Shown here: positions 41,715 through 61,241 of the stretch, piece by piece
Layout of the letters: each line of letters opens with the position of its first letter
Numbering within the stretch: position 1 is the first letter of the stretch
Assembly (NCBI GenBank): GCA_963715245.1
Contig: CAVQRM010000001.1
Coordinates: 643,188 to 707,187 of the forward strand
From: an uncultured Chloroflexia bacterium
GTDB lineage: Bacteria > Chloroflexota > Limnocylindria > Limnocylindrales > CSP1-4
Length of the DNA: 64,000 nt
Reading direction: 5' to 3'
Made by a program: the position numbers and the translations under genes
The notes under the pieces: model-generated
The model's database searches: none
What the model was told of the DNA's origin: nothing
What the model saw: only the letters and a program-made list of their open reading frames with translations

Positions 41715-42918
41715 ATGCAGGCGCACGCGATCACGCTGCTCGGAACCGGTCTGATCGGCGACTTCTACACGATGACGCTCCACGGGCAGCGCGGGCGTGA
41801 CCGCGTGCGGGTCGTCTACTCCAGGAGCGAGGGTCGCGGCGACGCCTTCCGGGAGCGCTGGGACATTCCGGAGTCCACGACGGACATGGAGGCGGCGATC
41901 CGCCATCCCGACACGGACGTCGTGATCGTCGCCCTGCCGAACCACCTCCACGAGCAGGCGGTCAAGGCCGTCGCGGCCGCCGGCAAGGCGGTCCTGTGCA
42001 CGAAGCCGCTCGGGCGCACGGCGGACGAGGCCCGGCGGATGCTCGAGGCCGTCGAGGCGGCCGGGGTCTTCGGCGGGTACCTGGAGGATCTCTGCTACAC
42101 GCCCAAGACGCTCAAGGCGATCCGGTCCGTGCGAGGACGGCGCGCTCGGCGACGTGACGTGGGTCCGCTCGCGCGAGACGCACCCGGGACCCCACAGCGC
42201 GTGGTTCTGGGACGGCCGGCTGACGGGCGGCGGCGCGATCATCGACCTCGGCTGCCACTGCATCGAGATCATCCGCAACTTCGTGGGCAAGGGGAACCGG
42301 CCGGTCTCCGTCATGTGCCACACGGACACGCTCGTGCACCCGATCGACGACGAGGACAACGCCGTCGCGCTCATCCGGTTCGAGTCGGGCGCGATCGGCC
42401 AGTTCGAGGTGAGCTGGACGTTCCGCGGCGGCATGGACCTGCGCGACGAGGTGGCGGGCACGCACGGCACGATCTGGCTCAACCACTTCCTGCGCACGGG
42501 CTACGAGATGTTCACCGCGGGCGGGTCCGGTGGGTACGTCGCCGAGAAGGCCGAGACCGCGGCCGGCTGGCTGTTCCCCGTGGGCGACGAGGTGTCCGAG
42601 CTCGGCTACGTCGACATGTTCTCGGACATGTTCAACGCGATCGACGGCGCCCGGGCGCCCCAGGAGACGTTCTACGACGGGTACGTCGTCAACGCGGTCA
42701 TGGACGCCTGCTACCGGTCCGCGAAGAGCGGCGCGTGGGAGCCCGTCGACCTGTTCGAGTGGCGCGGCGGCACGACGGCGCGGATCGGGAGCGAGCCGGA
42801 GCTGTACGAGGGGTTCGTCGTGATCAAGCGCGAGGTGCTGCCCGGACGGGCGCGAGAAGCTGATCCTCAAGGACCCGGCGAGGGCGACTTCGTGGACAGG
42901 GTCGTCGCCGGGGCGTGA
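41715..42918 (+). CDS. Gfo/Idh/MocA-family NAD(P)-dependent oxidoreductase (copy 1); apparent frameshift ~42140
   Basis: Rossmann N-terminus (…[13 protein letters not shown]…[14 protein letters not shown]…) in ORF 41715..42863. C-terminal alpha/beta domain in ORF 42154..42918. Confidence 0.65.
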
Positions 42919-43641
42919 CCGGGACGGCCCCCCGGATCGAGGTCCTCCCGGCTCGGGAGTGGGCTGCCGTTGTCGCCGCGACGCTCCTGGAACGACTCTC
43001 GGCGAACCCGCGCCTCCGCGTCTGCCTGCCGACCGGCGACACGCCCTCGCCGGTGTACGGACGGCTCGCCGAGGCCGACCTCGCCGACGGGCGCCAGCTG
43101 GGCGCAGGCGACCGTCGTGCTGCTCGACGAGTGGGCAGGCCTCCCGCCGGGCGATCCGGCACGCTGCGACGCCCGGCTGCGGCGCGAGCTGCTCGACCGG
43201 CTCGCGCCCCCGCCGCGCGTTCGTCCCGATCGACGTCGACGGATCCGACGCCGCGATGGCCGCGGCGGCACATGACGCTGCGGCGCCGGGACCTCGATCT
43301 CGCGGTCCTCGGCCTGGGGATGAACGGGCACGTCGGCTTCAACGAGCCCGGGTCGCGCCCGGACGACGGCACCCGTCTCGTCCGGCTGGCCGCGTCCTCG
43401 CGCGAGGCGGCGACGAGCCGCTACGGCGCGAGCGCCGTCCCCACGGCCGGGATCACGGTTGGCCTGGCCCGGCTGCTGGAGGCCCGGGAGGCCTGGCTCC
43501 TCGTCACGGGGGAGCGGAAGGCGCGCGATCCTGCGACGCGCGCTCCGTGAGCCGGAGGGGCCGGACTGTCCGGCGTCGTACCTGCGGCGCCACCCGGCGC
43601 TGACGGTGTTCGCGGACGAGGCTGCCGCCGCGCTCCTCTGA
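42915..43641 (+). pseudogene. glucosamine-6-phosphate deaminase/6-phosphogluconolactonase (NagB/Pgl)-family gene disrupted by ~4 frameshifts
   Basis: Family motifs scattered over three frames: …LPTGDTPSPVYGRLAE… (frame 0), …WAQATVVLLDEWAGLPPGD… (frame +1), …LGLGMNGHVGFNEPGS… (frame 0), C-terminal …PASYLRRHPALTVFADEAAAALL (frame +1). Confidence 0.5.
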
Positions 43642-43662
43642 GGGTTCCGCAGCCGGCTCGCC

Positions 43663-44973
43663 CCGTCAGGCGAGGGCGACCTCGGGCATGCCGGCGGGGC
43701 CGCCGGCCGCGAGCCAGCCCTCGATCGCATCGCGCGAGAACAGCTGGTCGACGACCAGCGCCGAGGTGCCGATGACGCCCGCCGAGCATCCCGAGCGACG
43801 AGCGCTGGATCACCAGCGATCGCGTCGCGAGCGGGAGCGAGCGGCCGTAGACCGTCTGGCGGATCGCCGCGAGGAGCTGGTCGCCGCTCTGCGCGACGCC
43901 GCCGCCGATGACGATCAGCGACGGGTTGAAGAAGTTGACGACGCTCGCGAGCATCTGGCCGACGCGCTGGCCCGCCTCCTGGAGCATGCCGATGGCGACC
44001 GGGTCGCCAAAGGCGGCTGCCCGCGCGACGTCCTCCGCGGTCACGGTTCCCCGTTCGTCGAGCGCCGCGGCCATGCGTGCGCTCAGGCCCCGGGCGGCCG
44101 CCGCCTCGCCCTGGATGCGGAGCGCATGACCGCCCGCGAGCGCCTCGAGACAGCCGACGTTGCCGCAGCGGCAGACCACGGATGGGTCGTCGACCACCTG
44201 GATGTGGCCGACGTCGCCCGCGCTTCCCTGGGCGCCGCGATGGAGGCGGCCGTCGGAGATGATGCCGGCGCCGATGCCCGTCCCGATCTTGACGACGACG
44301 ACGTTGTCGTGGCCCTGCGGCGATACCCGACCGCCACTCGCCGAGCGCGAGGACGTTGACGTCGTTGTCCACCCACACCGGGGCATCGAAGCGCTCGGCG
44401 AACCGCTCGCGGATCGCATAGCCGTCCCAGCCGGGCATGATCGGCGGCGAGATGGGCCGGCCCGTCGCGAACTCCACCGGTCCCGGCACCGCCGACGCCG
44501 ACGCCCCAGACCGGGATCGCGAGGTGCTTCGAGGTGTGCTGGAGCTGGGTGAACAGCTCCTCGACGCGGCCGAGCACGACCTCGGGTCCATCGGCGATGT
44601 CCGCGGGCTCCGTGTAATGGCCGAGGATGCGCCCGTCGAGATCGGTGATCGCGACGTCGATGCTCGTCGCCCCGAGGTCAGCGACCAGGACCTGGCCGGC
44701 ATCCGCCTGGAACGCGAGCTGGCGGGGCGGACGGCCACCCGTGCTGGGACCGACGTCGCCCTCGGTGACGAGCCCGCGGTCCAGCAGCTCCTGCACCCGG
44801 CGGGCGACGATCGCCCGCCCGAGGCCGGTCCGCGTCACGAGCTCCGAGCGGGACCGCGACCGGCCCAGCCGGATCTCGTCGAGGACGACGACGAGCGCGT
44901 CGAGCACCTCGTCCGGGAGCGCATCCAGGGGCCGCTGATCCGGCGGCCGTTCGAGCTGCTGCACGGAACGCAT
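43663..44973 (-). pseudogene. ROK-family (NagC/XylR-like) transcriptional regulator/sugar kinase gene with several frameshifts
   Basis: N-terminal wHTH (…SELVTRTGLGRAIVARRVQELLDRGLV…) and ROK motifs (…VKIGTGIGAGIISDGRLHRGAQGSAGDVGHIQVV…CRCGNVGCLEALAGG…) split between ORFs 44083..44997 and 43421..44419 and a third frame. Confidence 0.55.
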
Positions 44974-45119
44974 GCTACATCGCGGTGAGGCGTGCACAAC
45001 GGGCCTTTTGTCGTTGACACGCCGAAGTATGCTGGGCGGGACATTGTGGATCGCTTTCGGGCGACCGGCCGCCTGATCCGGCGCCGCGCCCGGCGCGGTA
45101 CCCGTACTATCCTCTGGAC

Positions 45120-45129
45120 TGTCTAGACA
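45120..45129. promoter_or_regulatory. 10-bp perfect palindrome TGTCTAGACA in the AT-richer divergent region between the ROK regulator and the downstream sugar operon; candidate operator
   Basis: Read directly, ~35 nt upstream of the Gfo/Idh/MocA gene start. Confidence 0.2.
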
Positions 45130-45161: not shown

Positions 45162-46338
45162 GTGACCGAGATGGTGCGCCGGAGCGACATCAGCACCGCC
45201 GTCATCGGCAGCGGGTTCATCGGGACCGTGCACATCGAGGCCCTCCGCCGGATCGGCGTGCAGGTCGCCGGCCTCCTCGAGTCCACGCCGGAGCTCGGCG
45301 CGAGGCGCGCCGCGGAGCTCGGCCTGCCGAAGTCGTGGGACAGCCTTGACGCCGTCCTCGCGGACCCGACGGTCCAGGTCGTCCACGTCACCAGCCCCAA
45401 CGAGCTCCACTACGAGCAGGCGTCCGCGATCCTCGGCGGCCGGCAAGCACGTCATCTGCGAGAAGCCGCTCGCCATGACGTCGCAGGAGTCCGCGGCGCT
45501 CGTCGCGCAGGCCGCGGCGTCCGGGCTCGTCAACGCCGTCAACTTCAACATCCGGTTCTACCCGCTCAACCAGCACGTCGCCCAGCTCGTGCGCGACGGC
45601 GGGGTGGGGGACGTCCGCTTCGTCAACGGGCGCTACTTCCAGGACTGGCTGCTGTTCGACACGGACTGGAACTGGCGGCTCGAGAAGGACAAGGGTGGTG
45701 CGCTGCGGGCGGTCGGCGACATCGGGAGCCACTGGCTGGACCTCACCTCGTTCCTCACCGGGCTGCGCCTCGAGGCCGTCATGGCCGAGCTCACGACCTT
45801 CATCCCGGTCCGCCAGAAGCCGGCCGGTCCCGTGCTCACCTTCTCGACCGAGCGGGCGGCGGAGACCGTGCCCGTCGAGATCAACACCGAGGACACGGCG
45901 ACGATCCTGCTGCGCTTCGAAGGCGGCGCTCGCGGCAGCGTGGCCATCTCCCAGCTCAGCCCCGGCCGCAAGAACAGCATCGTCTACCAGATCGACGGCT
46001 CCTCCTCCGCCGTCGCGTGGGATTCGGAGCAGCCTGAGCAACTTTGGATCGGTCATCGCGACCGTCCGAACGAGCTGCTGCTCCGAAACCCCGCGCTGAT
46101 GAACGGCGCGGGGGCCGCGGCAGCCCGCCTGCCCGGCGGCCACGTGGAGGGCTTCGCCGACACGTTCGGCGCGGTGTTCGGCGCCGTCTACGACGACGTC
46201 ATCGCCGGTCGCCCGTCCGCCGACCCGCGCTACGCGACGTTCGCCGACGGCCACGAGGAGATGCTCGTCGGCGACGCGGTCCTCGAGAGCTCCCGGACGG
46301 GCCGCTGGGTCGAGATCGCCCGCGGCGCCGGCGCATGA
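45162..46338 (+). CDS. Gfo/Idh/MocA-family oxidoreductase (copy 2); apparent frameshift ~45430
   Basis: …TAVIGSGFIGTVHIEALRR… N-terminus in ORF 45162..46037. Remainder (…GKHVICEKPLAMT…) in ORF 45346..46338. Confidence 0.7.
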
Positions 46339-46381: not shown

Positions 46382-47297
46382 ATGAAGCTCGGCTTCCTGA
46401 CCGCCCCGTTCCCCGAGACGCCGCTGATGGAGGTGGCCGACTGGGCCGCCGGCGTCGGGTTCGAGGTCCTCGAGATCGCCTGCTGGCCCCGGAGCGGAGG
46501 CGACACCCGCCGCTACGCGGGCACCAGCCACATCGACGTCGCCACGCCTCTCCGCGTCGCAGGCGCGCGACATCCGGGCCGAGATCGAGGGCAAGGGCCT
46601 CGCCATCTCGGGCCTCGGCTTCTACCCCAACCCGCTCCACCCGGACCCGGCCCATCGCGACCAGGTCATCGGCCATCTCAAGCTCGTGATCGACGCGGCC
46701 GAGAAGATGGACCTCCCGCTGGTGAACACGTTCATGGGCGGTGACGGCGCCCTGAACCAGGACCAGAACTGGGAGCGGGCGCTCGAGATCTGGCCCGACA
46801 TCGTCAGCTACGCGCAGGACCACGGCCGGAAGATCACGCTCGAGAACTGCCCGATGCTGTTCAGCTACGACGAGTGGCCGGGCGGGCACAACATCGCGAC
46901 CTCGCCCCGGATGTGGCGCCGGATCCTGGAGCAGTGGGGCGGCACGATCGGGCTCAACTTCGACCCGAGCCACCTCATCCTCCAGATGATCGACATCCGC
47001 CGGTTCCTCGTGGAGTTCGGGCCGCACGTCCTCCACTACCAGGCGAAGGACCTGATGATCGACCGCGACGGGCTGTACGAGCGCGGCATCTTCAGCATGG
47101 GCATGGGCTGGCAGGTCCCGCGGATCCCCGGCCTGGGCGACGTGGACTGGAGCGTCGTCCACGGCGAGCTGTACCGGGCCGGCTACGAAGGGGACTGCAT
47201 CATCGAGCACGAGGACCGCCGCTTCGAGGGGACCGACGAGAAGGTCAAGCAGGGGTTCCTCATCGCCCGTGACGTCCTTCGTCCGTACTGCCATTGA
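46382..47297 (+). CDS. sugar phosphate isomerase/epimerase (xylose-isomerase-like TIM barrel) family protein; apparent frameshift ~46565
   Basis: MKLGFLTAPFPETPLMEVADWAAGVGFEVLEIACWP… in ORF 46352..46744. Remainder (…KITLENCPMLFSYDEWPGGHNIATSP…) in ORF 46686..47297. Confidence 0.65.
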
Positions 47298-47325
47298 GCA
47301 CACGAGCGGCCGTGCCGTGCGCGGG

Positions 47326-47371
47326 GTTGACCCGGACGGGTCCGGTCCATACCATCGGTAATCGATTATCG
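47326..47371 (+). promoter_or_regulatory. sigma70-like promoter (TTGACC-17 nt-TACCAT) immediately followed by the 11-bp palindrome TCGATTATCGA; candidate promoter plus repressor operator for the deoC-led operon
   Basis: Read directly. The same architecture recurs at 61242..61281 on the minus strand, with 15/15 identity over ATCGATTATCGAGGA and similar spacers. Confidence 0.4.
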
Positions 47372-47439
47372 AGGACAACCGTGCTGCAGCCCGACGGGAC
47401 CCGGGCCGCAACCGGCAGGCCCCCGGCATCCGGAGCGAC

Positions 47440-48180
47440 ATGACCCTTTCGATCGAGCACCTGACCGAGCGCGACATCGCGAAGACCATCGACCACAGCC
47501 TCCTGCGGCCGGAGCTCGACGACGAGTTCGTCGAGGACGGCTGCCGGCTGGCCGCCCGATACGACGTCGCCTCCGTGTGCGTGCGTCCCGCGGACGTCCG
47601 GCGCGCGGCGGCGATTCTCGACGGGACCGACGTCGCGGTGGGCACGACCATCGGCTTCCCGCACGGCAACCACGCGACCGAGACCAAGGTGTTCGAGGCC
47701 CGGCAGGCCCTCGCGGACGGCGCAACCGAGCTGGACATGGTCATCAGGATCGGCGCGCTCAAGAGCGGTCGCGACCAGGATGTCGAGGACGACATCCGTG
47801 CGGTCGTGGAGGTCGCCCACGCCGCCGGTGCGATCGTCAAGGTGATCTTCGAGAACGCCTACCTCACGGATGACGAGAAGATCCGCGCGTGCCGGCTCAC
47901 CGAGGCCGCGGGCGCCGACTTCGTCAAGACGAGCACCGGCTTCGCCCCATCGGGGGCCACCCACGAGGACCTGCGCCTCATGCGCGCGAACACGGGCGCG
48001 CACGTCCAGGTGAAGGCCGCGGGCGGGGTGCGCACCCTGGATGCGCTGCTCGCGGTCATGGAGATCGGCGTCACACGGATCGGCGCAACCGCCACCGAGA
48101 CCATCATCGCCGACTTCCGCGCCCGCAAGGCCGGCGAGGTCCCGGGCGCCGCCGTCACCTCGGACTCGGGCGCCTACTGA
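47440..48180 (+). CDS. deoC: deoxyribose-phosphate aldolase
   Basis: …LLRPELDDEFVEDGCRLAARYDVASVCVRP…FVKTSTGFAPSGATHEDLRLMR…VKAAGGVRTLD… is class I aldolase DeoC signature with Schiff-base Lys context. Intact. Confidence 0.85.
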   Translation: MTLSIEHLTERDIAKTIDHSLLRPELDDEFVEDGCRLAARYDVASVCVRPADVRRAAAILDGTDVAVGTTIGFPHGNHATETKVFEARQALADGATELDMVIRIGALKSGRDQDVEDDIRAVVEVAHAAGAIVKVIFENAYLTDDEKIRACRLTEAAGADFVKTSTGFAPSGATHEDLRLMRANTGAHVQVKAAGGVRTLDALLAVMEIGVTRIGATATETIIADFRARKAGEVPGAAVTSDSGAY

Positions 48181-49242
48181 TGCCGCCGGTCGGCGTCGGG
48201 ATGCTCGGCTGCGGCTTCATCGGCGAGTTCCACGCCCTGGGCCTGCGGTACGTGGCCGACGCCAGGCTCGTCGCCGCGTGCGACGCCAGCCCGGAGCGCG
48301 TGGCCGGGTACACCGAGCGGTTCGGCGGGCGGCCCTACGCGACCGTCGAGGAGCTGTGCGCCGACCCCGACGTCGACCTCGTCGTCGTCTCGCTGCCCAA
48401 CCACCTGCACCGCGAGGCCGTGCGCACGGCCGCCGCCGCGGGCAAGGGCGTCGCGTGCACCAAGCCGCTCGGGCGCAACGCGACCGAGGCGGCCGACATG
48501 CTGGCCGCGGTCACGGACGCCGGCGTGTTCAACGCCTACCTCGAGAACGTCATCTTCAACCCGGACCTGCTGCGGATGCGCGAGATGGTGGAGGCCGGCG
48601 CCATCGGCCGCCTGACGACCGCACGCGCGCGTGAGGGCCACTCGGGTCCGCACGCGGCACACTTCTGGGATGCCGAGCTGGCGGGGGGCGGGGCGCTCCT
48701 CGACATGGCGTCGCACGGCGTGGAGTACGCGCGGTTCCTGTTCGGCAAGGACGCTCGCGGTCGCCGACGTGTTCGCGTGGGGCGCCACCCTCGTCCACGG
48801 CGAGCGGACCACTGGCGAGGACAATGCGGTCATGGTGATGCGCTTCGAGGACGGGCGCGCCGCGACGATCGACGTCTCGTGGTCGTCGAAGGGCGGGCTC
48901 GAGGGCCGCTTCGAGGCCTACGGGGACGCCGGCCGGCTGATCACGGACATCAGCGTCGGGTCCCTCAAGGCGTTCGTGGAGCGCCCGGCAGGCTACGTCG
49001 TGGAGAAGGCCGACGCCGAGACCGGCTGGGTGTTCCCGGTGCCGGACGAGGTGCGCGTCCACGGCCACGACCTGATGATGGCCGACGTGATCGACGCGTT
49101 CCGAAGCGGCCGCGCCCCGAAGGAGACGTTCCGCGACGGCTTCGCCGTGAATGCCGTCCTCGACGCCGCGTACCGATCGCTCCGCAGCGGCACCTGGGAG
49201 CCCGTGGCGACGACCCCCGTGCCCGCGATGGCCGCCTCGTGA
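48181..49242 (+). CDS. Gfo/Idh/MocA-family oxidoreductase (copy 3); apparent frameshift ~48760
   Basis: ATG overlapping deoC stop (TGATG). …VGMLGCGFIGEFHALGLR…VVVSLPNHLHREA… N-terminus in the long ORF 47889. C-terminal part in ORF 48631..49242. Confidence 0.7.
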
Positions 49243-50036
49243 ACGCGACGACGACCGCCGCCACCACGTGGCTCGGGGATGCCGCCGCCGTCCTCGCCCG
49301 CGTCGCCGAGACCCAGGCCGACGGGATCGAGACGGCGAGCCGCTGGTGCGCCGACGCCATCGCCGCCGACGGGCTCGTCCACCTGTTCGGCACCGGGCAC
49401 AGCCGGATCCCGGTGGAGGAGATGTTCCCGCGGTACGGGTCGTATCCGGGCTTCAACCCGATCGTGGAGCTGTCGATGACGTTCCACACCCAGGTCGTCG
49501 GGGCGAACGGCCAGCGCCAGGCGATGTTCATCGAGCGGATGCCCGGGCTCGCGGAGGTGATCCTCTGCAACTTCACCTTCGGCCCGCGCGACGTGATGAT
49601 GGTGTTCTCGGCCGGTGGCCTGACGGCCGTCCCGGTCGAGATGGCGCGCGGGGCGAAGGCCCGCGGCCTGCGCGTGATCGCGGTGACCTCCGTCGCGCAG
49701 TCGATGTCCTCGGAGCCCGAGCCGGCGGCCGGCCAGCGACTGCTCGAGGTCGCGGATCTCGTCCTCGACCTATGCTCTCCGCACGCCGACGCGTCGGTCA
49801 CGATTCCCGGCCTGGAAAGTCCGGTCGGCCCGTTGTCGACGGTCGGCGCAGTCGCCATTGTCAACGCCATCAAGTCCCGGACCGCAGAGCTCCTCGTCGA
49901 TCGAGGGGCGATGCCGCCGGTCATCAGCCGCGCCAGCGCGGTTGGCCCTGACCGGTCGCGGGAGTTGTTCGACGAAGCCTATCGAGAGCATGCGCGGCGG
50001 CTCGCCCGTGCGATCGGCCAGCAAGGAGGTGGGTGA
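49239..50036 (+). CDS. SIS (sugar isomerase) domain protein
   Basis: GTG start overlapping upstream stop. …GLVHLFGTGHSRIPVEEMF…VMMVFSAGGLTAVPVEMARGAKARGLRVIAVTS… Intact. Confidence 0.6.
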   Translation: MNATTTAATTWLGDAAAVLARVAETQADGIETASRWCADAIAADGLVHLFGTGHSRIPVEEMFPRYGSYPGFNPIVELSMTFHTQVVGANGQRQAMFIERMPGLAEVILCNFTFGPRDVMMVFSAGGLTAVPVEMARGAKARGLRVIAVTSVAQSMSSEPEPAAGQRLLEVADLVLDLCSPHADASVTIPGLESPVGPLSTVGAVAIVNAIKSRTAELLVDRGAMPPVISRASAVGPDRSRELFDEAYREHARRLARAIGQQGGG

Positions 50037-50130
50037 CGCTTCAACGAGCCCGTGGTAGCGCAACGTCAGGGTTCCAGGCGGACCTGGCTCCGATCGGAGC
50101 CGTCGGCCGCCACAAGGAGGAGACGCGTTC

Positions 50131-51225
50131 ATGAAGCATCTGGGCAAGGCCCGCGCGGTGGTCGCCATCGGCGCGATCGCGCTCGTCGCTGCCGCGTGCG
50201 GCAGCGGCGGTGGCAGCAGCGACCAGTTCGCGATCGGCTATTCCAACGGCCTCGGCGTCGGCAACGGCTTCCGCGAGGAGCAGGTCTGCACCGCGAAGGC
50301 CGAGGCGCTCGCCTCGGGCAAGGTGTCCACGCTGACCACCATTCACCGGGTCACCGACTCGGCCGGCCAGCTCCAGGACATCCGCGACCTGATCGCGAAG
50401 GGCGTGAAGGCCATCGTCTTCAACCCGAACGACACCGAGGCGCTCAACCCGGCCCTCGACGAGGCCCAGGCGGCCGGCATCAAGACCGTCTCGGTCGATG
50501 CCTACGTCACCGACCCCGAGACCTACAACCTGTACAACAACCAGGTTGAGTACGCCAAGCTCGGCGCGAAGTGGCTGTTCGAGCAGATGGGCGGCCAGGG
50601 CACCGTGTACTACATGCGCGGTGCAGCCGGTCACCCGGCCGACAGCGACCGCGACATCGGGTTCAAGGAAGTCCTTGCCGAGTACCCGAACATCACGGTC
50701 GTCCCGAACGCCGACGGCGTCCACACGGGCTGGGATCCGGCGACCACCACCCAGCTGATCAACGACTTCATCGCCTCCGGCGAGTACGACAACATCCAGG
50801 GCATCTGGACGTCCGGCATGGACTCCCAGGTTGTTGACGCGATCTACGCGGCCGGCAAGACCCCCGTGCCGATCGTCGGCGCGGACCTCGGCGCGTTCGT
50901 GGCGCAGCTCCTCGACCCGGACAAGTACCCGGGCCTCGTGGGCGCGGCCGTCACCAACACCGCCGCCGTCGGCGGCGCAGGCGTCAACCTCGCGCTCAAG
51001 CTCCTCCAGGGCGAGACGATCGAGACCGCGGCCGACGCCCCCCAGCCGAACACCGTCCTCCTCGACCCCGTCGTCGCCGACAACGTGTCCGACGATGGCA
51101 AGGCCACGCTCGAGTCGTGGCAGGTGGACGGCCTCGATCCGCTGTGGCCGCTCGGCCTCACGATCGACGGCTGGACCACGTACACCCCCGAGCAGGCCGT
51201 CGCCTGCAAGGCTCCCGGCGAGTAG
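50131..51225 (+). CDS. sugar ABC transporter substrate-binding lipoprotein (RbsB/CUT2-type periplasmic binding protein)
   Basis: Lipobox …LVAAACGSGG… Type I PBP fold motifs. AAGGAG-like SD. Confidence 0.8.
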   Translation: MKHLGKARAVVAIGAIALVAAACGSGGGSSDQFAIGYSNGLGVGNGFREEQVCTAKAEALASGKVSTLTTIHRVTDSAGQLQDIRDLIAKGVKAIVFNPNDTEALNPALDEAQAAGIKTVSVDAYVTDPETYNLYNNQVEYAKLGAKWLFEQMGGQGTVYYMRGAAGHPADSDRDIGFKEVLAEYPNITVVPNADGVHTGWDPATTTQLINDFIASGEYDNIQGIWTSGMDSQVVDAIYAAGKTPVPIVGADLGAFVAQLLDPDKYPGLVGAAVTNTAAVGGAGVNLALKLLQGETIETAADAPQPNTVLLDPVVADNVSDDGKATLESWQVDGLDPLWPLGLTIDGWTTYTPEQAVACKAPGE

Positions 51226-51307
51226 ACTTTCCGCTCCGCGGAAGCCCTTCCAGGGGGATGCCGGTTCGCCGGCATCCCCCTCGTCCATCCCCACCGACCA
51301 GGGACCG

Positions 51308-52882
51308 ATGACCGTCAGCGCGCCCCCCTTCCTGCTCGAGGCCGAGGACGTTTCCAAGACCTACGGCGCCGTCGTGGCGCTCAAGGCCGCGTCCCTGCAC
51401 GTCAGACCCGGTGAGGTCCACGCGCTCATGGGGGCCAACGGCGCGGGCAAGAGCACGCTGGTCAAGATCCTGACCGGCGCCGTCCGCCCGAACTCCGGCC
51501 GCATCTCCGTGCGCGGCCGCGACCGCGTCGTCCACTCGCCCGCCGAGGCACGCCGCGGCGGTCTCGTCTCGGTGTACCAGGAGCCGGCCCTCATCCCGGA
51601 CCTGGACATCCGGGACAACCTCCGCCTCACCGATACCCCGCTCGAGCCGTTCCGCCACTGGCTCTCGGAGCTCGGGCTCGAGGGCCTCGACCTGTCCGAC
51701 CTGGCGCGGCGCGTGCCGCTCGCCTCGCTGCGGGTCATCGACCTCGCCCGGGCGCTCGCGATCGAGCCCGACATCCTGATGCTCGACGAGATGACCGCGG
51801 CCCTGCCCGCGAACCTCACGGAGCGGGTGCTCGAGGTCGTCGGCCGCACGCGCGGAGGAGACCGGTCCGTCCTCTTCATCTCCCACCGCATGATCGAGAT
51901 CGCCTCCGTGTGCGACCGGGCGACGGTCCTCCGCGAGGGCGAGACCGTCGGCGTCGTGGACGTCGAGGCCGGCTCCGAGGAGCGGATCGTCGAGCTGATG
52001 CTGGGCGAGGGGGTCGACGACGTCCCGGCGACCGGGGGTCGGGAGCCCACCGCCGCCCGCAGCGCAGCGCAGGGACCGCGGCTCGTCGCCCGGGCGCTCG
52101 CCCGCGGCGCGAGGCTCCAGGACGTCTCGTTCGAGCTGTACCCGGGCGAGGTGCTGGGCGTCGTCGCGCTCGAGGGCCAGGGCCAGGACGAGCTGTTCAA
52201 CGTCCTGTCGGGCTCGAGCCGGCCCGATGCCGGTGGCCTGTCGGTGGACGGGACGCCGGTCGTGTTCAAGCACCCCGCGGACGCGATCCGCGCGGGCCTC
52301 GTGTACGTCCCGGCGGACCGGGCGGAGGCGCTGCTCATGCAGCGGTCGGTGCGCGAGAACATCGCGCTCCCCCTGACGACGCGCCTGCGGGCATGGGGAC
52401 TCATCCGCACCGGCGAGGAGAACCGCATCGTCGACGGCGCGATCGACCGCCTCCAGATCGACACGCGCGCCCAGGGCGAGGTCCGCCGGCTGTCCGGCGG
52501 CAACCAGCAGAAGGTGACGATCGGGCGCTGGGTCGCGGGCGGCGTGCGGACGCTGCTCTGCTTCGACCCGACCCGCGGCATCGACATCCGGACGAAGCAC
52601 CAGATCTACGTCCTGCTCCGCGACCTCGCCGAGGCGGGCGCCGCGGTCCTCCTGTACACGTCCGAGCTCAAGGAGGTCCAGCTCGCGTGCGACCGGGCGA
52701 TCGTGATCTTCAACGGGCACGTGGTCGCCGAGATCGCCGTCCAGGACGCGGATGAGCCGACCCTGCTGCGGGCTGCGTACAACCTCACGTCGGACGCGGT
52801 GATCCCGCAGTTCACCGCCGGCGACGGGCCGGGCGCCGCGAACCCGACGCACGCCGAGCCGGCCACGGAGGCACCGGCATGA
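51308..52882 (+). CDS. sugar ABC transporter ATP-binding protein with duplicated NBDs (CUT2 family)
   Basis: Walker A GANGAGKST, two ABC signature regions (LSGGNQQKVTIGRW…). ~525 aa. Intact. Confidence 0.85.
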   Translation: MTVSAPPFLLEAEDVSKTYGAVVALKAASLHVRPGEVHALMGANGAGKSTLVKILTGAVRPNSGRISVRGRDRVVHSPAEARRGGLVSVYQEPALIPDLDIRDNLRLTDTPLEPFRHWLSELGLEGLDLSDLARRVPLASLRVIDLARALAIEPDILMLDEMTAALPANLTERVLEVVGRTRGGDRSVLFISHRMIEIASVCDRATVLREGETVGVVDVEAGSEERIVELMLGEGVDDVPATGGREPTAARSAAQGPRLVARALARGARLQDVSFELYPGEVLGVVALEGQGQDELFNVLSGSSRPDAGGLSVDGTPVVFKHPADAIRAGLVYVPADRAEALLMQRSVRENIALPLTTRLRAWGLIRTGEENRIVDGAIDRLQIDTRAQGEVRRLSGGNQQKVTIGRWVAGGVRTLLCFDPTRGIDIRTKHQIYVLLRDLAEAGAAVLLYTSELKEVQLACDRAIVIFNGHVVAEIAVQDADEPTLLRAAYNLTSDAVIPQFTAGDGPGAANPTHAEPATEAPA

Positions 52883-53874
52883 CGGCGGCGTCGCCGGCCG
52901 TGCCCGTCGGCCGGACCGCCTCGCTCGATGCCGCCGCGCGCCGCAACGCGTGGACGCTCGGGCTGGTCGGGTTCCTCGTCGCGCTCCTCGCGTTTACCAA
53001 GATCATCAACCCGGACTACGGCGTGGCCGGCCTCCAGGGCCTCGCCATCGCGGTGCTGCCGCTCGCCCTCGCGACCGTGGGGCAGGCGATCGCGGTGATC
53101 TCCGGCGGCATCGACCTCTCGATCGCCGCGATGATGGCGCTCTGCGGCGTGGTCACGGCGACGATGATGGAGGGCCAGTCCGCGGAGTTCGGGCTTGTCG
53201 TCGTGGCCGGCGTGCTGCTGCTGGGGATCGCCCTCGGGGCCATCAACGGCGGCGTCGTGGTGCTCACGAAGGTCCCGGATATCGTCGTCACCCTCGCGAT
53301 GTCGTTCGTGTGGTCGGGGTTCGCGCTGCTCGTGCTGCGAACGCCGGGCGGCAAGTCCGTGCCCTGGCTGCGCGACCTCGTCCTCGGACCGGTGGTCGTG
53401 GACTTCGTACCCAAGGCCGCCGTCGTGCTGCTCGTGGTCGTCGCGATCATCTGGATCCCACTCCGGCGCTCGCGCCTCGGCCTGTCGATCTACGCGATCG
53501 GCAGCAACCGGCTGGCGGCGTTCCGCAGCGGCGTCTCGGTCGGACGCACGAAGGTCGCGGCGTACGCGTTGACCGGCCTGTTCGCGGCGCTGGGCGGGCT
53601 GGCCGTCGTCGCGTCGACCGGCATCGGCGACCCGAAGTCCGGCCCGTACACGCTCCAGGCCGTCGCGGCGGTCGTCCTCGGGGGCGTGAGCCTCGCGGGT
53701 GGCCGGGGCGGCATCTTCGGCCCGGTGATCGCGGTGGTGATCCTCCAGCTCATCCGGACGGACATGACGTTCCTCAACCTCGACACGAACCTGGCCGTCG
53801 TCGCCCAGGGCGTCATCCTCATCGGCGTCGTGATGGTCGGCAGCTACGTCCAGCTCAGGAGGGATCGCGCATGA
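52879..53874 (+). CDS. ABC transporter permease (RbsC-like), copy 1
   Basis: 10-TM-like hydrophobic protein. Translationally coupled (ATGA overlap). Confidence 0.8.
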   Translation: MTAASPAVPVGRTASLDAAARRNAWTLGLVGFLVALLAFTKIINPDYGVAGLQGLAIAVLPLALATVGQAIAVISGGIDLSIAAMMALCGVVTATMMEGQSAEFGLVVVAGVLLLGIALGAINGGVVVLTKVPDIVVTLAMSFVWSGFALLVLRTPGGKSVPWLRDLVLGPVVVDFVPKAAVVLLVVVAIIWIPLRRSRLGLSIYAIGSNRLAAFRSGVSVGRTKVAAYALTGLFAALGGLAVVASTGIGDPKSGPYTLQAVAAVVLGGVSLAGGRGGIFGPVIAVVILQLIRTDMTFLNLDTNLAVVAQGVILIGVVMVGSYVQLRRDRA

Positions 53875-54866
53875 GCGGCGCCGCCGGGGTCCAGGGCGTG
53901 CGTGGCACGCTGTCCGCGGGCGGCCTCCGCGGCCTGTTCCGCGACTATCCGCTGGTGCCGCTGGTCGCGCTCCTGCTGCTGCTCGTGGCGTTCATCGCGG
54001 TCGTGCGGCCGGGGATGGTCAGCGCCGACTGGGCCGGCGTCGTCGTCCGCCAGTCGATCCCGCTCGCCCTGCTCGCGGCCTGCCAGACGATCACGTTCCT
54101 CACCGGCGGCATCGACCTCTCGGTGGGTGCCGTGGCGTCGATGAGCGGCTTCCTCGTGGCGACGCTCGTCGGCGGGCAAGGCCTCCCGATGGCGCTCCTC
54201 ATCGCGCTGCTCGTGGCGGCGCTCGCCGGCTTCCTGTCCGGGATCGGCGTGGGCGTGTTCCGCGTCCACCCGCTGATCATGACCCTGGGCATGGGCCTGG
54301 TCGTGCTCGGTCTCGCGAACGTGTGGCAGCTGATGATGGTCCAGACCGGCGCCGGCGTTCCCGGCGAGCTGCGCTGGATCGGGTCGGGGATGCTGGCGTC
54401 GATCCTGCCGTACAGCCTGCTGGTGTTCGTCCCCGTTGCGGCCTTCGTCCTGATCATGCTGCGTCGGACCGGCTATGGCCGGCAGCTCTATGCCATCGGC
54501 GACAACCCGGTTGCGTCCCGCCTGTCGGGTGCCCGGAGCTGGCAGGTCCTCACGGCCCTGTACGTGATCTCCGCGCTGATCGCGGCGATCGCCGGCTTCC
54601 TCTACTCGGGCGCGAACAACACCGCGAGCGTCACGCTCGTGGACTCCTCGGTGCTGCCGTCCGTCGCGGCGGCGGTCATCGGCGGGACGTCGATCATGGG
54701 CGGGCGCGGCGGCTATGCGGGCACGATCGTCGGGGCGCTGATCCTCACGGTCCTCGCGTCGCTGCTGACGGTGATGGGCTTCCCCGAGGCGGTCCGCCAG
54801 ATCCTGTTCGGGTCGATCATCGTCGCGGTCGCCGCCGCCTACACACGGGTCACCGCCGAGGGCTGA
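53871..54866 (+). CDS. ABC transporter permease (RbsC-like), copy 2
   Basis: Hydrophobic. ATGA overlap with the upstream permease. Confidence 0.8.
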   Translation: MSGAAGVQGVRGTLSAGGLRGLFRDYPLVPLVALLLLLVAFIAVVRPGMVSADWAGVVVRQSIPLALLAACQTITFLTGGIDLSVGAVASMSGFLVATLVGGQGLPMALLIALLVAALAGFLSGIGVGVFRVHPLIMTLGMGLVVLGLANVWQLMMVQTGAGVPGELRWIGSGMLASILPYSLLVFVPVAAFVLIMLRRTGYGRQLYAIGDNPVASRLSGARSWQVLTALYVISALIAAIAGFLYSGANNTASVTLVDSSVLPSVAAAVIGGTSIMGGRGGYAGTIVGALILTVLASLLTVMGFPEAVRQILFGSIIVAVAAAYTRVTAEG

Positions 54867-55185: not shown

Positions 55186-57363
55186 TCAGTTGCGGGCGGC
55201 GGCGGCCTCCTGGAGCTCGCGCATCCGGACCGTCGAGTACGAGGGCCCTTCCTCGCGCGTCAGCTGGGCAAGCACGTCGATCGGCAGGTCGTCGACGATC
55301 GCCCCGTTGGGGTTGAACAGCAGGTGCTCGTCCACGGCGAGCCCGAACGCCGAGCCCTCCTTGACCGCGTGGTACAGGTTCCGCGGCGCCACCGAGTCGC
55401 CCACGTTGAGGACGTGGACGCCGGCCGCCTTGAGCTCGGTGAACAGTCCGATCTCCGGCCGGGTGTGGCAGGTGACGACGTCGTCCACCTCGATCTCGGA
55501 GCGTCCGAAGTCGCTGCCCTGGAGCACCACCCGGGTCCCGTCGATCTCCGCCACGGTCGTCGACGTGATCACCGTGACGGGATGCTTGTACGGCCGCGAC
55601 GAGAGCACCTCCGCGTCGCCCTGCGCGAAGCGCTTGCGCAGGACGTACATGTGGATGACCTCGCAGTCGGCCGCGAACTCCCGGTTCTCGGTGACGATCG
55701 TGACCTCGCGGCCGATGTCGGCCAGCCACGCGGCGGTGTCGGCGGCCGCGTACGAGTCGCCCCACAGCAGCACCCGCTGGCCGACCTTGCGCATCTTCCG
55801 GCCGCCGGGATGGCACTCGCAGGCGATCTTCGGGCAGGCCATCGTCTCCTCGAACGGCACGACCCGCGACGCGTCGCCGACGACCGGCGGCACGTACGAC
55901 GCGGCACCGGTCGCGTTGAGCACGAGGTCGAAGCCCGCGCAGCTCCTCGACCGTCGGCGCGTGGTTCAGCCGCACGTCCACGTGGAGGTCGAGCACCTGG
56001 TCCCGGATCCAGTCCAGGTACCAGCGCATCTTCTCCTTGCCCGGGACCATGCACACGTACTTCATCGCCCCGCCGAGCTCACCGGAGCGCTCGAACAGCG
56101 TCACGAGGTGGCCGCGCTCGGTCGCGATCCGCGCCGCCTCCATGCCCGCCGGCCCGCCACCGACGACCGCGACGCGCACCGGGCGCTCCGTCCGCCGCAT
56201 GTCGTCATAGGCGGGGTTGCCGCACGCCGCGTTGATCGAGCACGCGATCTCGTGCTTCGCCATCAGCGACTCCTGCCAGCAGCCGCCGAGGCAGGAGATG
56301 CACTTGCGGATCGACTTCGTCCGGCCGTACTGCGCCTTGACCGGCCAGTACGGGTCCGCCAGGAGCTGGCGCGCGAGGCCGACGAGGTCCGTCTTGCCCT
56401 CGGCGAGGATCTGCTCGCAGTACTCGGGGTCGCGCAGCGAGTGCGAGGTGATGACCGGGATCTTCACCACGGCCTTCGTCGCCTCGGCGGCGTAGGTCGC
56501 CCAGCCCTGCGGGTACTGCATCGGGTCGAAGCCCGCGCCGGGCGACTCCTGCATGCCCTGCGCTGAGGTCGAGCGCCGCGACACCGGCCCGCTCCAGCAC
56601 CCGCGCGGTCTCGAGACCCTCCTCCATGTCGCGGCCGCCCGGGCACCACTCCTCGAACGAGTACCGGACGAGGATCGGGTATCCCTTGCCGCACTTCTTC
56701 TGGATCGAGTCGATGACCGCGAGCGGGAACCGCATCCGGTTCTCGAACGAGCCGCCGAAGCGGTCCGTCCGCATGTTGAGGTAGGGGCTCATGAACTCCG
56801 ACAGCAGGTAGCCGTGGGCCGCGTGGAGCTCGACCGCGTCGAAGCCCGCCTGCTTCACGCGCCAGGCCGCCTCGCTGAACAGGTCGACGAGCTCGAGGAT
56901 CTCGGCGATCGATGCCTCGCGGATCTCCTTGCCCTTCTCCTCGGCGTTCTCGTACACGATCTCGTGGCCCGCGGACCACGGGAGCTTGAGGACCCGGTCC
57001 GTTGCGCCCAGCGTGTTGTAGCGGGGGATCGCGCACTGGCGCCCCGGGTGCTGGAGCTGGACTGCGCACTTCGCGCCGTAGCGGTGCATCGACTCCGCCA
57101 GGCGGGCGAGGCCCGGGACGTAGTTGTCGCCGTCGGCCACAAGGCAGGTCACGGTGGGCCGGCCGGTCTTCATGTCCGGCGTCGTCGCGCCGACGATGAC
57201 GAACCCGGTCCCGCCCTTCGCGATGTTCGCGTGGTGGTGGATGTCGCGCTCGCTGACCTCGCCGTCTGCATGGGAGGAGCTGATGTCCGTCGGGACGTGG
57301 ACGATGCGGTTGGGGAGCGTGAGGCTGCCCAGCTGCAGGGGGCTGAACATCGTGCGGGAACGG
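55186..57363 (-). CDS. OYE-like NADH:flavin oxidoreductase fused to an FAD/NAD(P)-binding domain (2,4-dienoyl-CoA reductase / DgcA dimethylglycine demethylase / StcD N-methylproline demethylase / trimethylamine dehydrogenase family); two apparent frameshifts (~56575, ~55935)
   Basis: N-terminal TIM barrel MFSPLQLGSLTLPNRIVHVP…HAAHGYLLSEFMSPYLNMRTDRFGGSFENRMRF… (ORF 56205..58202 frame). 4Fe-4S linker + FAD region …RKCISCLGGCW…VAVVGGGPAGMEAA… (ORF 54839..56584). NAD(P) domain (ORF 55186..55923). Confidence 0.65.
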
Positions 57364-57548: not shown

Positions 57549-58457
57549 ATGGCCGTCTACGTCTGGCAGCAGGACATGGAGCCCGCGTTCCCGCTCGCGG
57601 CGCTCGAGTACACCGTGCACGGCGACGGCGACCCGATGCACTGGCACGACCACTTCGAGATCGCGCTCGTGCTCGAGGGGCGCGGCGTGTTCATGTTCGG
57701 CCGGCGCCCGCTCGAGGCGGAGGCGGGAGACGTGTTCTTCATCGACAACTCGCAGCCGCACGTCGCGCTGGCCGACCGCGGGGCGCCGATGCGGCTGCTC
57801 CTGCTCCTGTTCCGGCCCGAGCTCGTCGCACCGCCCGGCTGCCGCGAGCTCGACGAGGCGCTGCTCGCCCCGTTCCGACCGGTCGCCGGCGGCTCGCCGC
57901 GCGTCCCGGCCTCGGCGCCGGTCGCCTGCGAGGTCGCGTCGATCCTCCATGACATCGCGGACCGGTGGACGGGCCGCGACCCGGCCGAGCGACCGGTCGT
58001 CGACGCGATGCTCCGGCTCGCGCTCGCGCTCGTCCACCGAGCGGCGGCCTCGTCCGCGCCCGCCGACGCCGCGCGTGCGGCCGCCGACCGTCGCGAGCAG
58101 ATCCGCCCGGTGCTGGCCTATGTGGACGGCCACTGCCGCGAGAGCATCACGCTCGAGGACGTCGCCGCGGTCGCGCACGTGAGCCCGAGCCGCGTCCGGC
58201 ACGTGTTCAAGGACGTCACCGGCGTGAGCTTCAAGGAGTACGTGACGCAGGTCCGCGTGGCGGAGGCGAAGCGCCTGCTCCTGGGCACCGAGCTGTCCGT
58301 CGCGGACGTCGCGCGGTCCGTCAGCTACACGAACCTCAACCAGTTCTACAAGGTGTTCTACCGCTCGTGCGGCATGTCGCCGGGCGAGTACCGCCGCTAC
58401 TACCTGCCGGCCGGGAGCGACGAGGCTCCCGTGCCCGCCGCAGCACCACGGGAGTGA
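57549..58457 (+). CDS. AraC-family transcriptional regulator (cupin sensor + HTH_AraC)
   Basis: Divergent from the flavoprotein gene. C-terminal …ITLEDVAAVAHVSPSRVRHVFKDVTGVSFKEYVTQVRVAEAKRLLLGTELSVADVARSVSYTNLNQFYKVFYRSCGMSPGEYR…. Confidence 0.8.
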   Translation: MAVYVWQQDMEPAFPLAALEYTVHGDGDPMHWHDHFEIALVLEGRGVFMFGRRPLEAEAGDVFFIDNSQPHVALADRGAPMRLLLLLFRPELVAPPGCRELDEALLAPFRPVAGGSPRVPASAPVACEVASILHDIADRWTGRDPAERPVVDAMLRLALALVHRAAASSAPADAARAAADRREQIRPVLAYVDGHCRESITLEDVAAVAHVSPSRVRHVFKDVTGVSFKEYVTQVRVAEAKRLLLGTELSVADVARSVSYTNLNQFYKVFYRSCGMSPGEYRRYYLPAGSDEAPVPAAAPRE

Positions 58458-58462
58458 CGTCG

Positions 58463-59347
58463 ATGACGATGACGATGCAGGCCGACGCGGTCGGCGTCCG
58501 GGTCCGCGAGGCGGTCGACGCCGACTGGGAGGATGCCGGGCGGATCTGCTACGAGGCGTTCGCGACGCTCGCCGACCAGCACGGCTTCCCGCACGACTTC
58601 CCGACGGTGGAGGCGGCCGCGCTCCCGATTCGCTGGCTCATCAACCACCCGCAGGTCTACGGCGTGGTCGCGGAGAAGGACGGCCGGGTCATCGGGTCGA
58701 GCTTCCTCGACGAGCGGGGGACGATCTCGGCGATCGGGCCGGTGAGCGTGGAGCCCGGGATCCAGGACCACCACGTCGGGCGGATGCTCATGGAGGCGAT
58801 GCTGGGGCGGGCGCACGCGCGGAACGCACCCGGGGTCCGGCTCGTCCAGATCGCGTACCACAACCGCTCGCTCGCCCTGTACGCGCGGCTGGGGATGGAG
58901 GTCCGAGGCTCGTTCGCCGCGATGTACGGCCCGCCGATCCGCGAGTCCATGCCGGGCTACGACGTCCGCGCCGCCACCATCGACGACGAGTACGCCTGCA
59001 ACTCGCTGTGCCTCCGGGTCCACGGGCACGCGCGCGCCGGCGAGGTCCGCGAGGCGATCGAGGCGGGGACCGCTCGGGTCGTCGAGCGCCTCGGCCGGAT
59101 CACGGGCTACACGACGAGGATCAACTACTTCGCCCACTCGGTCGCCGAGACGAACGACGACCTGCGCGCGCTCATCTGCGAGGCCGAGGAGTACGGGACG
59201 CCGGGCTTCCTCGTCCCGCTGTCGAACAACGACCTGTTCCGGTGGTGCCTTGACCGCGGGCTGCGGGTGTTCTTCGTCACCCAGATGATGACGATCGGGC
59301 TGTACCAGGAGCCCGAGGGCGCGTACATGCCGTCCGTCGGGTACTGA
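58463..59347 (+). CDS. GNAT-family N-acetyltransferase (tandem acetyltransferase fold)
   Basis: …HVGRMLMEAMLGRAHARNAPGVRLVQIAYHNRSLALYARLGMEV… acetyl-CoA binding-like motif. Confidence 0.55.
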   Translation: MTMTMQADAVGVRVREAVDADWEDAGRICYEAFATLADQHGFPHDFPTVEAAALPIRWLINHPQVYGVVAEKDGRVIGSSFLDERGTISAIGPVSVEPGIQDHHVGRMLMEAMLGRAHARNAPGVRLVQIAYHNRSLALYARLGMEVRGSFAAMYGPPIRESMPGYDVRAATIDDEYACNSLCLRVHGHARAGEVREAIEAGTARVVERLGRITGYTTRINYFAHSVAETNDDLRALICEAEEYGTPGFLVPLSNNDLFRWCLDRGLRVFFVTQMMTIGLYQEPEGAYMPSVGY

Positions 59348-60433: not shown

Positions 60434-61219
60434 CTACTGGGTGGCGGTGAGGCCGCCGTCGATGCCGATCACCTGGCCGGTGATGAACGAGGCGGCGGGG
60501 GAGGCGAGGAACACGACGGCGCCCGTGATGTCGTCGGTGGTGCCGATGCGACCCAGCGGGATCCGGTTGACGACGTTCGCCTTGAACACGGGATCGCCGA
60601 GGAGCGTCGCCACCTGTGGCGTGTCCACGAACGTGGGCCGGATGGCGTTGACGTTGATCGCGTGCTTCGCCCACTCGGTCGCCCACTGGCGCGTGAGGGC
60701 CTCGATCGCGCCCTTCGCCGCGACGTACGCGGAATAGCCGGCGTTGATCGCGAGCACGGCGCGCACCGAGGACAGGTTCACGACGCTGCCGCCGTTGCCC
60801 GCCTCGATCATGGCCCGAACCGCGGCCTGGGTCGGGATCACCGTCGAGCGGAGGTTGAGCTCCATGATCCAGTCCCACGCGTCGCGCGGGTACGTCTGGG
60901 CGTCGTGCAGCTCGTTGCCCGCGCCCCCGCCGATCGCGTTGACGACGATGTCGATGTGGCCGAAGCGGGCGAGCGCTGCGGCCACGGCGCGTTCCGAGTC
61001 GGCCTCGCTGGTCGCATCCGCCGCCACGCCGATGGCCTCGCCGCCGGCCGCCACGATCGCGTTGGCCGTCGCGTCTGCCTTCTCCTGGGTCTGGTTGACC
61101 GCGACGACCTGCGCGCCGGCGCCCGCGAGGGCCTTCGAGATCGCGCTTCCCATCGCCCCGCCGCCGCCCGGTACGAGGGCGACCTTGCCCTGCAGGCTGA
61201 ACGCATCGAGATAGCTCAT
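60434..61219 (-). CDS. SDR-family NAD(P)-dependent oxidoreductase
   Basis: …KVALVPGGGGAMGSAI… glycine-rich motif, …NAIG…, catalytic Y-xxx-K (…YSAYVAAKGA…). Start set at MSYLDAF (ATG 61219) because the longer ORF would overlap the promoter elements at 61242..61281. Confidence 0.8.
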   Translation of the reverse strand: MSYLDAFSLQGKVALVPGGGGAMGSAISKALAGAGAQVVAVNQTQEKADATANAIVAAGGEAIGVAADATSEADSERAVAAALARFGHIDIVVNAIGGGAGNELHDAQTYPRDAWDWIMELNLRSTVIPTQAAVRAMIEAGNGGSVVNLSSVRAVLAINAGYSAYVAAKGAIEALTRQWATEWAKHAINVNAIRPTFVDTPQVATLLGDPVFKANVVNRIPLGRIGTTDDITGAVVFLASPAASFITGQVIGIDGGLTATQ

Positions 61220-61241
61220 CGGGCTCCCTTCCGTCACATCA

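Follow-up and report, generated by a model that had tools for sequence, protein, structure and literature searches.

The window, by which we mean the whole 64-kb stretch of DNA that was analysed, belongs to a MAG of the Limnocylindrales (Chloroflexota), an uncultured soil/freshwater bacterium, and has a GC content of about 72%. The gene map was made on the basis of Pfam and NCBIfam, and the genes that concern us here are:

41715-42918, + strand: Gfo/Idh/MocA oxidoreductase
42915-43550, + strand: NagB/6PGL-like protein
43421-44997, - strand: ROK regulator, encoded inside the sugar cluster
45162-46338, + strand: Gfo
46428-47297, + strand: xylose-isomerase-like TIM barrel (TIM)
47440-48180, + strand: deoC, deoxyribose-phosphate aldolase family (Pfam DeoC; NCBIfam TIGR00126, 232 bits, cut-off 117)
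48190-54866, + strand: predicted remainder of the deoC operon (Pfam)
about 48190-49242, + strand: Gfo/Idh/MocA oxidoreductase, frameshifted in the assembly
49239-50036, + strand: SIS_2 sugar isomerase-like protein
50131-54866, + strand: sugar ABC transporter (binding protein, ATPase, two permeases)
55186-55923, - strand: Pyr_redox
57549-58457, + strand: AraC
58454-59347, + strand: GNAT
59527-60420, - strand: MBL, metallo-beta-lactamase-fold hydrolase (Pfam Lactamase_B), predicted to be co-transcribed with SDR
60434-61219, - strand: SDR, short-chain dehydrogenase (Pfam adh_short_C2, E = 1e-57)
61568-62446, - strand: NAD-epimerase
62929-63915, + strand: GntR/FCD (GntR helix-turn-helix and FCD)

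The gene order of the predicted deoC operon matches that of about 70 related loci, and deoC itself is the first gene behind the element called site 1 below, with its ATG at 47440 and a GGAG ribosome-binding site 9 nt upstream. The start of SDR was placed at ATG 61219, as read from the sequence, with the ribosome-binding site GGAAGGGAG. The three Gfo/Idh/MocA genes (41715-42918, 45162-46338 and about 48190-49242) and the ROK gene (43421-44997) have their frames split in two in the window. In the related locus L001, the three Gfo orthologues are single-frame and the hits to the ROK orthologue are nearly contiguous, which points to indel errors of long-read assembly rather than real pseudogenes; the fragmentation is alike in many related MAGs, many of which bear 'MFD' names.

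Two predicted promoters with a common palindromic element

Promoter and candidate operator elements of the two operons were located as follows:

47327-47332, + strand: -35 (TTGACC) of the deoC-operon promoter, from the promoter scan; TTGAC is kept in 10 orthologous promoters
47350-47355, + strand: -10 (TACCAT) of the deoC-operon promoter, from the promoter scan; TAnnAT is equidistant from the operator in orthologues
47354-47376, no strand assigned: candidate operator site 1, three hexamers in a 7-bp register, ATCGGT-A-ATCGAT-T-ATCGAG-GAC
61275-61280, - strand: -35 (TTGACC) of the SDR-MBL promoter, from the scan; TTGACC is kept before SDR in L007, L080-L083, L086 and L132
61252-61257, - strand: -10 (TATCCT) of the SDR-MBL promoter, from the scan; orthologues have TATCCT or TATCAT
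61238-61256, no strand assigned: candidate operator site 2, on the + strand AT-C-ATCGAT-T-ATCGAG-G-AT

The consensus promoter scan returned one promoter per region, TTGACC-17-TACCAT (47327-47355) and TTGACC-17-TATCCT (61280-61252), and 0 in shuffled sequences. Both predicted promoters are of the sigma-70 type, with 9 of 12 hexamer matches each and with hexamers kept in orthologues. The site 1 module on the + strand (47325-47376, GGTTGACCCGGACGGGTCCGGTCCATACCATCGGTAATCGATTATCGAGGAC) consists of TTGACC, a 17-nt spacer and TACCAT followed by CGGTA-ATCGATTATCGAG-GAC, and the site 2 module on the - strand (61282-61217, CGTTGACCCGGACCCGGACGTCACCTATCCTCGATAATCGATGATGTGACGGAAGGGAGCCCGATG) of TTGACC, a 17-nt spacer and TATCCT, with cTCGATAATCGAT beginning within the -10. 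The first-pass annotation of this DNA had proposed TTGACC/17-nt/TAnnnT modules at these two operons, and the scan found both as placed there.

The pattern search for TCGATWATCGA that the same annotation had recommended, run on the 64-kb window, gave exactly two matches, both at the predicted promoters, against 0.03 expected, and 0 of 100 shuffles reached two. The window contains the 15-mer ATCGATTATCGAGGA at two positions only, 47361-47375 and 61241-61255, against about 0.05 expected. With two exact copies against 0.03-0.05 expected, the arrangement is indeed very unlikely by chance, as had been claimed. The 15-mer lies on the same genomic strand at both copies and the promoters are oppositely oriented, so that the block is inverted relative to the two promoters, which is tolerated at both because the block is a palindrome. 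Relative to the -10, it begins 5 nt downstream at the deoC promoter and overlaps the hexamer at the SDR promoter, since GAGGA complements TCCTC. The initial description, an identical 15-nt block with an 11-bp perfect palindrome just downstream of the -10, thus needs to be amended: the identity of the block stands, as does its position at deoC, but in addition to the inversion the centre of the 11-bp palindrome is asymmetric (T versus A, read in gene direction), and the stated position does not hold at SDR.

In a gapless alignment from the -35, the modules also match in register (TCGGTAATCGATTAT versus TCGATAATCGATGAT), and the element appears as ATCGAT-like hexamers repeated every 7 bp, counted from the fifth base of the -10 (ATCGGT-A-ATCGAT-T-ATCGAG at site 1 and cTCGAT-A-ATCGAT-G-ATGTGA at site 2). 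The best 13-bp core of site 1 spans 47361-47373, with the palindrome centre at 47367; site 2 is centred at 61247, overlaps the -10 and has one mismatch to the 19-bp consensus given below. The 12 nt shared around the -35, GTTGACCCGGAC, are not significant alone (10 of 100 shuffles give at least two hits at one mismatch or fewer) and orthologous promoters do not keep the spacer; the initial description had counted this common -35/spacer start as part of the module.

Conservation of the site and the link between SDR-MBL and deoC

The comparison set comprised about 170 related loci (numbered from L001), including 80 related deoC loci taken from species-representative genomes. In most of these 80, deoC directly follows TIM, with no promoter in between. 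The 10 loci with a TIM-deoC gap all have TTGAC-N17/18-TAnnAT and then CG(G/C)(T/C)(A/G)ATCGATTATCGAG; site 1 is conserved in L001, L003, L004, L005, L007, L008, L035, L037, L045 and L075. The ten orthologous deoC promoters retain TAnnAT and CGGTAATCGATTATCGAG, and the -35/-10 spacer and the UTR of 60-120 nt diverge. Judged by this alignment, the candidate ATCGAT site is a phylogenetic footprint. A position-weight scan of the related loci found further copies of the palindrome before TIM (L010, L028, L036, L057), before the binding-protein gene (L014), before the first Gfo gene (L043, L048, L059) and before SDR-MBL (L007, L076, L080). The arrangement of site 2 recurs before SDR in 7 other loci.

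Over 1.5 Mb of related loci together with the window, ATCGATNATCGAT was found 15 times as a perfect match, against 0.2 expected under a second-order Markov model, and 40 times with one mismatch, against 12 expected. Of the 33 site clusters in the deoC loci and the window, 29 were intergenic, with intergenic DNA making up 14% of the sequence. The symmetrised consensus of 88 unique sites is AT-n-ATCGAT-w-ATCGAT-n-AT. Its flanks at +/-8 and +/-9, which were not used in site selection, are about 70% A/T in genomes of about 70% GC, and therefore the palindrome extends to 19 bp. We also considered a LacI or Cra-like operator at site 1, in which CG would be the centre of an 18-bp palindrome. This reading was rejected because its left half is poorly conserved in orthologues, and because the 88-site consensus has its axis of symmetry at the W between the ATCGAT hexamers, whereas a LacI-family operator would be an even palindrome of 14-20 bp with CG in the middle; no LacI-type regulator was seen among the annotated gene families common to deoC loci, in a scan that was not exhaustive.

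The suggestion of the first-pass annotation that a small regulon links the deoC cluster with the SDR/MBL pair was borne out in other genomes of the Limnocylindrales. In L080-L083, L086 and L049, SDR-MBL-Gfo-TIM-DeoC form a single operon behind an ATCGAT site, and therefore the proposed regulon link appears real. The five genes make one co-directional block in L080 and L049, and in L076 SDR-MBL is divergent from Gfo-TIM-DeoC with the site between them, so that SDR-MBL and the deoC cluster belong to one functional unit. The SDR-MBL pair is kept in L007, L049, L076, L080-L083, L086, L109, L132, L158 and L159. Taken at the level of gene order and site position, these data support the assignment of the SDR/MBL pair and the deoC cluster to one predicted regulon with a common promoter-operator module. 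L007, a close relative, has deoC and SDR sites as in the window; its SDR is divergent from an Rph-like gene, the promoter of which contains the 23-mer TACCATCGGTAATCGATTATCGA, identical to the deoC module of the window. A protein search with the N-terminal fragment of this Rph-like protein returned only fragmentary proteins, none of them on the L007 or the window contig.

A GntR/FCD protein as the candidate cognate regulator

In L080, a GntR/FCD gene at 5387-6142, here called GntR-X, lies between two sites. Its product has a GntR domain (E = 1.3e-14) and an FCD domain (E = 9.8e-25) according to Pfam, as do the homologues in L081-L086 (65-88% identity; L080-L086 together span 65-100%); its relatives are P0121 and P0122. 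In all seven loci, L080-L086, the (ABM-)Rph-like-GntR-X operon is directly preceded by a perfect site, which lies on its -10. In L081-L086 the layout is TAL on the - strand, the site, and then (ABM)-Rph_4th/PEP-utilizers(594 aa)-GntR-X, and what lies downstream of GntR-X is either a site followed by SDR-MBL-Gfo-TIM-DeoC-... or a CoxMSL-like Mo-hydroxylase with a PPDK_N/PEP-utilizers protein. Where SDR adjoins, in five GntR-X loci, the second site is found between GntR-X and SDR.

A further 80 metagenome loci encode GntR-X homologues of 53-69% identity. Their recurrent core reads MBL(-), SDR(-), TAL(-), site, (ABM), Rph, GntR-X, 295aa, FAD-binding, Fer2, MoCo, PPDK. Upstream DNA of at least 2.2 kb was available for 30 metagenome loci; by hand count, about 21 of these have the site within 2.3 kb upstream of GntR-X, typically in the divergent region between TAL(-SDR-MBL) and (ABM-)Rph-GntR-X. 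The remaining GntR-X-like loci (about 9 of 30) are without a site at one mismatch or fewer, their gene context differs, and they are probably paralogues. The helix-turn-helix TSQAPVREALR is invariant across the family.

GntR-X is the sole DNA-binding protein in the conserved core and the sole regulator conserved beside the site over 53-100% identity. Such co-occurrence of a site with the only regulator in the core, measured here on DNA selected for encoding DeoC or GntR-X, is what comparative genomics ordinarily takes as the mark of a cognate repressor that regulates itself. With GntR-X co-transcribed with the Rph-like enzyme behind an ATCGAT site, upstream of the regulator's own unit in 7 of 7 MAG loci and about 21 of 30 metagenome loci, autoregulation is implied. 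An adjacent regulator with GntR and FCD domains was found in the related loci only and not inside the window: the 64 kb contain no GntR-X orthologue and no Rph-like, TAL or Mo-hydroxylase gene. The regulator must therefore act in trans, encoded elsewhere, and we infer that GntR-X is present in the source genome.

Altogether, we consider it likely that the ATCGAT palindrome is an operator of a trans-encoded dimeric repressor of the GntR family (FadR/FCD), namely GntR-X, that acts by promoter occlusion; GntR-X binding, repression and a ligand are what we infer. Whatever the promoter class, the palindrome, 13-19 bp long, either adjoins the predicted -10 or overlaps it. It begins within TATC(A/C)T in the SDR class and 5 nt downstream of the -10 in promoters of the deoC and Rph class, where a weaker third hexamer overlaps the -10, and in other lineages its start falls within the final two bases of a box resembling TATAAT. 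A palindrome at or just past the -10 is placed as is classical for steric repression. Occupied by a GntR-X dimer, its 13-19 bp would keep RNA polymerase off the promoter or stop the open complex from forming, and since the site lies on or directly after the -10, a bound repressor would block RNA polymerase at both operons, that is deoC-Gfo-SIS-ABC transporter and SDR-MBL. A small-molecule inducer from the pathway would bind the FCD domain and release GntR-X. In the related genomes GntR-X would repress its own Rph-like-GntR-X operon, and its gene is directly followed by a second site, which would control SDR-MBL(-Gfo-TIM-DeoC); in the genome of the window it would act in trans from outside the 64 kb.

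Alternative regulators and relation to known systems

Alternatively, another trans-acting factor, such as AraC (57549-58457) or a heptad-binding ribbon-helix-helix protein, may bind the site, the neighbourhood of GntR-X being merely a co-regulated target. Ribbon-helix-helix repressors can bind 7-bp heptads, and hexamers repeated every 7 bp, in runs of up to three, recall them; however, no ribbon-helix-helix gene is conserved near the sites. AraC is weakly enriched among the deoC loci that bear a site (7 of 25, against 3 of 56), but the AraC-type loci have a different conserved palindrome in the AraC-Gfo region, and neither L080-L086 nor the metagenome core loci have a full AraC gene. Furthermore, a compact palindrome of 13-19 bp on the -10/transcription start is a misfit for an AraC-type activator. 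Since no regulator other than GntR-X stays beside the site over the range of 53-100% identity, GntR-X remains the better candidate, and we regard a different trans factor as unlikely.

The first-pass annotation had named the nearby GntR, ROK or AraC as the shared regulator, and none of the three is supported; the best candidate is the GntR/FCD protein encoded outside the window. The in-window GntR/FCD (62929-63915), proposed there, has the same domain architecture as GntR-X, GntR helix-turn-helix and FCD, and its gene is a near neighbour of the SDR-MBL promoter, at a distance of about 1.7 kb from site 2. The two proteins are nevertheless only 24-26% identical, and their recognition helices begin differently (VSRPV in the in-window GntR, TSQAP in GntR-X); relatives of GntR-X at about 55-60% identity in other gene contexts are already without the site. 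The promoter of the in-window GntR has its own, different TTGG-N5-CCAG box (AATTGGCCTTACCAGTT) beside TTGACG-17-TAGCAT and no ATCGAT site nearby, and the gene was not seen beside the motif in any other locus examined, which makes its binding to the ATCGAT palindrome highly improbable.

Just as improbable is that the ROK regulator (43663-44973, - strand) binds the palindrome and controls the internal promoters. In 37 of 81 loci, a ROK gene and the first Gfo gene are divergently oriented; the window is among these loci, and so are all those that have a deoC site of the window type. Against this, the site occurs with no ROK gene nearby in L010, L014, L028, L057, L076 and L080-L086, and over the 81 deoC loci ROK is not linked to the site, being encoded in 12 of 25 loci with it and in 25 of 56 without it. 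The ROK-Gfo intergenic region contains two other conserved motifs and no ATCGAT site, and the palindrome that flanks the ROK gene is of a different kind from the candidate operator, so that neither association nor position is as for an operator of a ROK regulator of the NagC/Mlc/XylR type. Finally, that the element acts as RNA (a hairpin in the 5'UTR or a riboswitch), or is a functionless product of chance or of a recent duplication, is hardly credible: the palindrome could form a hairpin of -7.1 kcal/mol (z = -1.76) and the two window promoters share the 12 nt around the -35, but the folds of the UTRs do not surpass those of shuffled sequences (z = 0.35 and 0.72), an Rfam search of both strands of the 64-kb window gave no hit at the gathering score, the site is mostly untranscribed at the SDR and Rph promoters because it overlaps the -10, it serves in both orientations with respect to the gene, and intergenic enrichment with cross-species conservation excludes chance.

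Repression by GntR-X, the reading we prefer, resembles what is known of the FadR-subfamily (FCD) GntR repressors, such as FadR, PdhR, LldR, McbR/YncC and NanR of E. coli and Atu1419 of Agrobacterium. The likeness lies in the winged helix-turn-helix with FCD, in the compact palindromic operator over the core promoter, and in the regulator gene in or beside the regulated operon with a site upstream of itself; the differences are that the target genes of GntR-X are others and uncharacterised, and that in the window the regulator would act from elsewhere in the genome. The nearest solved relatives of GntR-X are FCD regulators (7xp0, McbR 4p9f, 6z74, NanR 6on4), either uncharacterised or distant, and an Atu1419-like regulator is among them. 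GntR-X reaches no curated NCBIfam equivalog, the best being phnR_burk with 100 bits against a cut-off of 271. Operators of the FadR subfamily usually have a t.GT-N(x)-AC.a core. The consensus AT-n-ATCGAT-w-ATCGAT-n-AT is without such a GT...AC core, and thus GntR-X may represent a new specificity within the subfamily.

The logic is also that of RegPrecise-style regulon reconstructions for sugar-catabolic repressors, where a palindrome at co-localised catabolic promoters goes together with autoregulation of an adjacent regulator. In the literature searched we found no comparative-genomics reconstruction and no other description of a regulon for Limnocylindria, no relevant paper with the motif strings, and nothing relevant on PDB 7XP0 and Limnocylindria regulators. 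The proposed ATCGAT-w-ATCGAT/GntR-X regulon is new, and the promoter-occluding kind of repressor is already known; the mechanism being that of a conventional repressor site, the view of regulation is unchanged. The regulators DasR/NagR of the HutC subfamily, with dre sites of the GTCTAGAC type, are comparable in that they serve sugar/amino-sugar catabolism clusters, and a GTCTAGAC/GTATAGAC motif is present upstream of the first Gfo gene. This motif (45113-45128 in the window) is separate from the ATCGAT palindrome and marks a second regulatory input to the sugar cluster.

We tentatively suggest that ATCGAT-w-ATCGAT and GntR-X may define a previously undescribed catabolic regulon serving one pathway, widespread in uncultured soil Chloroflexota and related high-GC bacteria. 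If so, the pathway would combine a split Rph/PEP-synthase-like phosphotransferase and a CoxMSL-type molybdenum hydroxylase with a TAL/FSA-type aldolase, SDR and MBL-fold hydrolase and, in the Limnocylindrales, with the Gfo/TIM/DeoC/SIS sugar module and its ABC importer, and the ligand of GntR-X would be an intermediate of it. The predicted regulator-operator pair is concrete and testable, and it concerns Limnocylindria, a class for which we know of no cultured representatives. The site ties SDR, the MBL-fold hydrolase, the Rph-like PEP-utilising enzyme and the Mo-hydroxylase to a sugar-uptake/aldolase cluster, and this link offers a handle for pathway discovery and for the annotation of many metagenome contigs.

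The gene cluster around GntR-X is conserved in L081-L086 and L087-L166 (e.g. L158:998-12634) and is widespread in high-GC soil and sediment metagenomes. One side of it carries MBL, SDR and a TAL/FSA-type aldolase; the divergent side begins with ABM and the Rph_4th/PEP-utilizers protein and continues with GntR-X, a 295-aa protein that has no Pfam hit, the CoxMSL-like Mo-hydroxylase and PPDK_N/PEP-utilizers, and the whole looks like a split PEP-dependent phosphotransferase. In L080 (3205-3262), L081 (5817-5875), L082, L083 and L086, the site at the ABM/Rph promoter is bracketed by an 8-bp inverted repeat, GGTTGGCA ... TGCCAACC, the arms of which are about 36 bp apart, and the left arm doubles as a -35-like TTGGCA.

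Other conserved elements were noticed upstream of the first Gfo gene. In the ROK-Gfo intergenic region (window 45005-45030), a palindrome of about 25 bp, ACTTTTGCAC-TTGACA-GTGCAAAAGT, is built around TTGACA; it is conserved beside the start of the ROK gene, at the same position in about 35 related loci, with a degenerate copy in the window (CTTTTGTCGTTGACACGCCGAAGT), and is likely a ROK operator or an element of the divergent promoter. In most related loci, a tandem or palindromic motif, TCTAGAC-NN-TCTAGAC / CTAGCCGTATAGACTGG, lies 40-90 nt before the Gfo start (window copy at 45113-45128, TCTGGACTGTCTAGAC), in some of them directly after a TTGACC-N17-TACCAT promoter. We take this motif to resemble the sites of the HutC family (DasR/NagR), and a HutC-family gene follows the ROK kinase in 34 related loci (e.g. 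L016:18324-19073). L010, L014, L028, L034 and L036, in which AraC is divergent from the first Gfo gene, have a different palindrome in common, TGACAGTTAATCGGCCGTTAGTGTCA. In the promoter of the in-window GntR/FCD gene (window 62878-62931), the -35 TTGACG (62893-62898) is overlapped by the TTGG-N5-CCAG palindrome and is followed after 17 nt by the -10 TAGCAT (62916-62921); the ATG at 62929 comes only about 7 nt after this -10, which suggests a leaderless mRNA.
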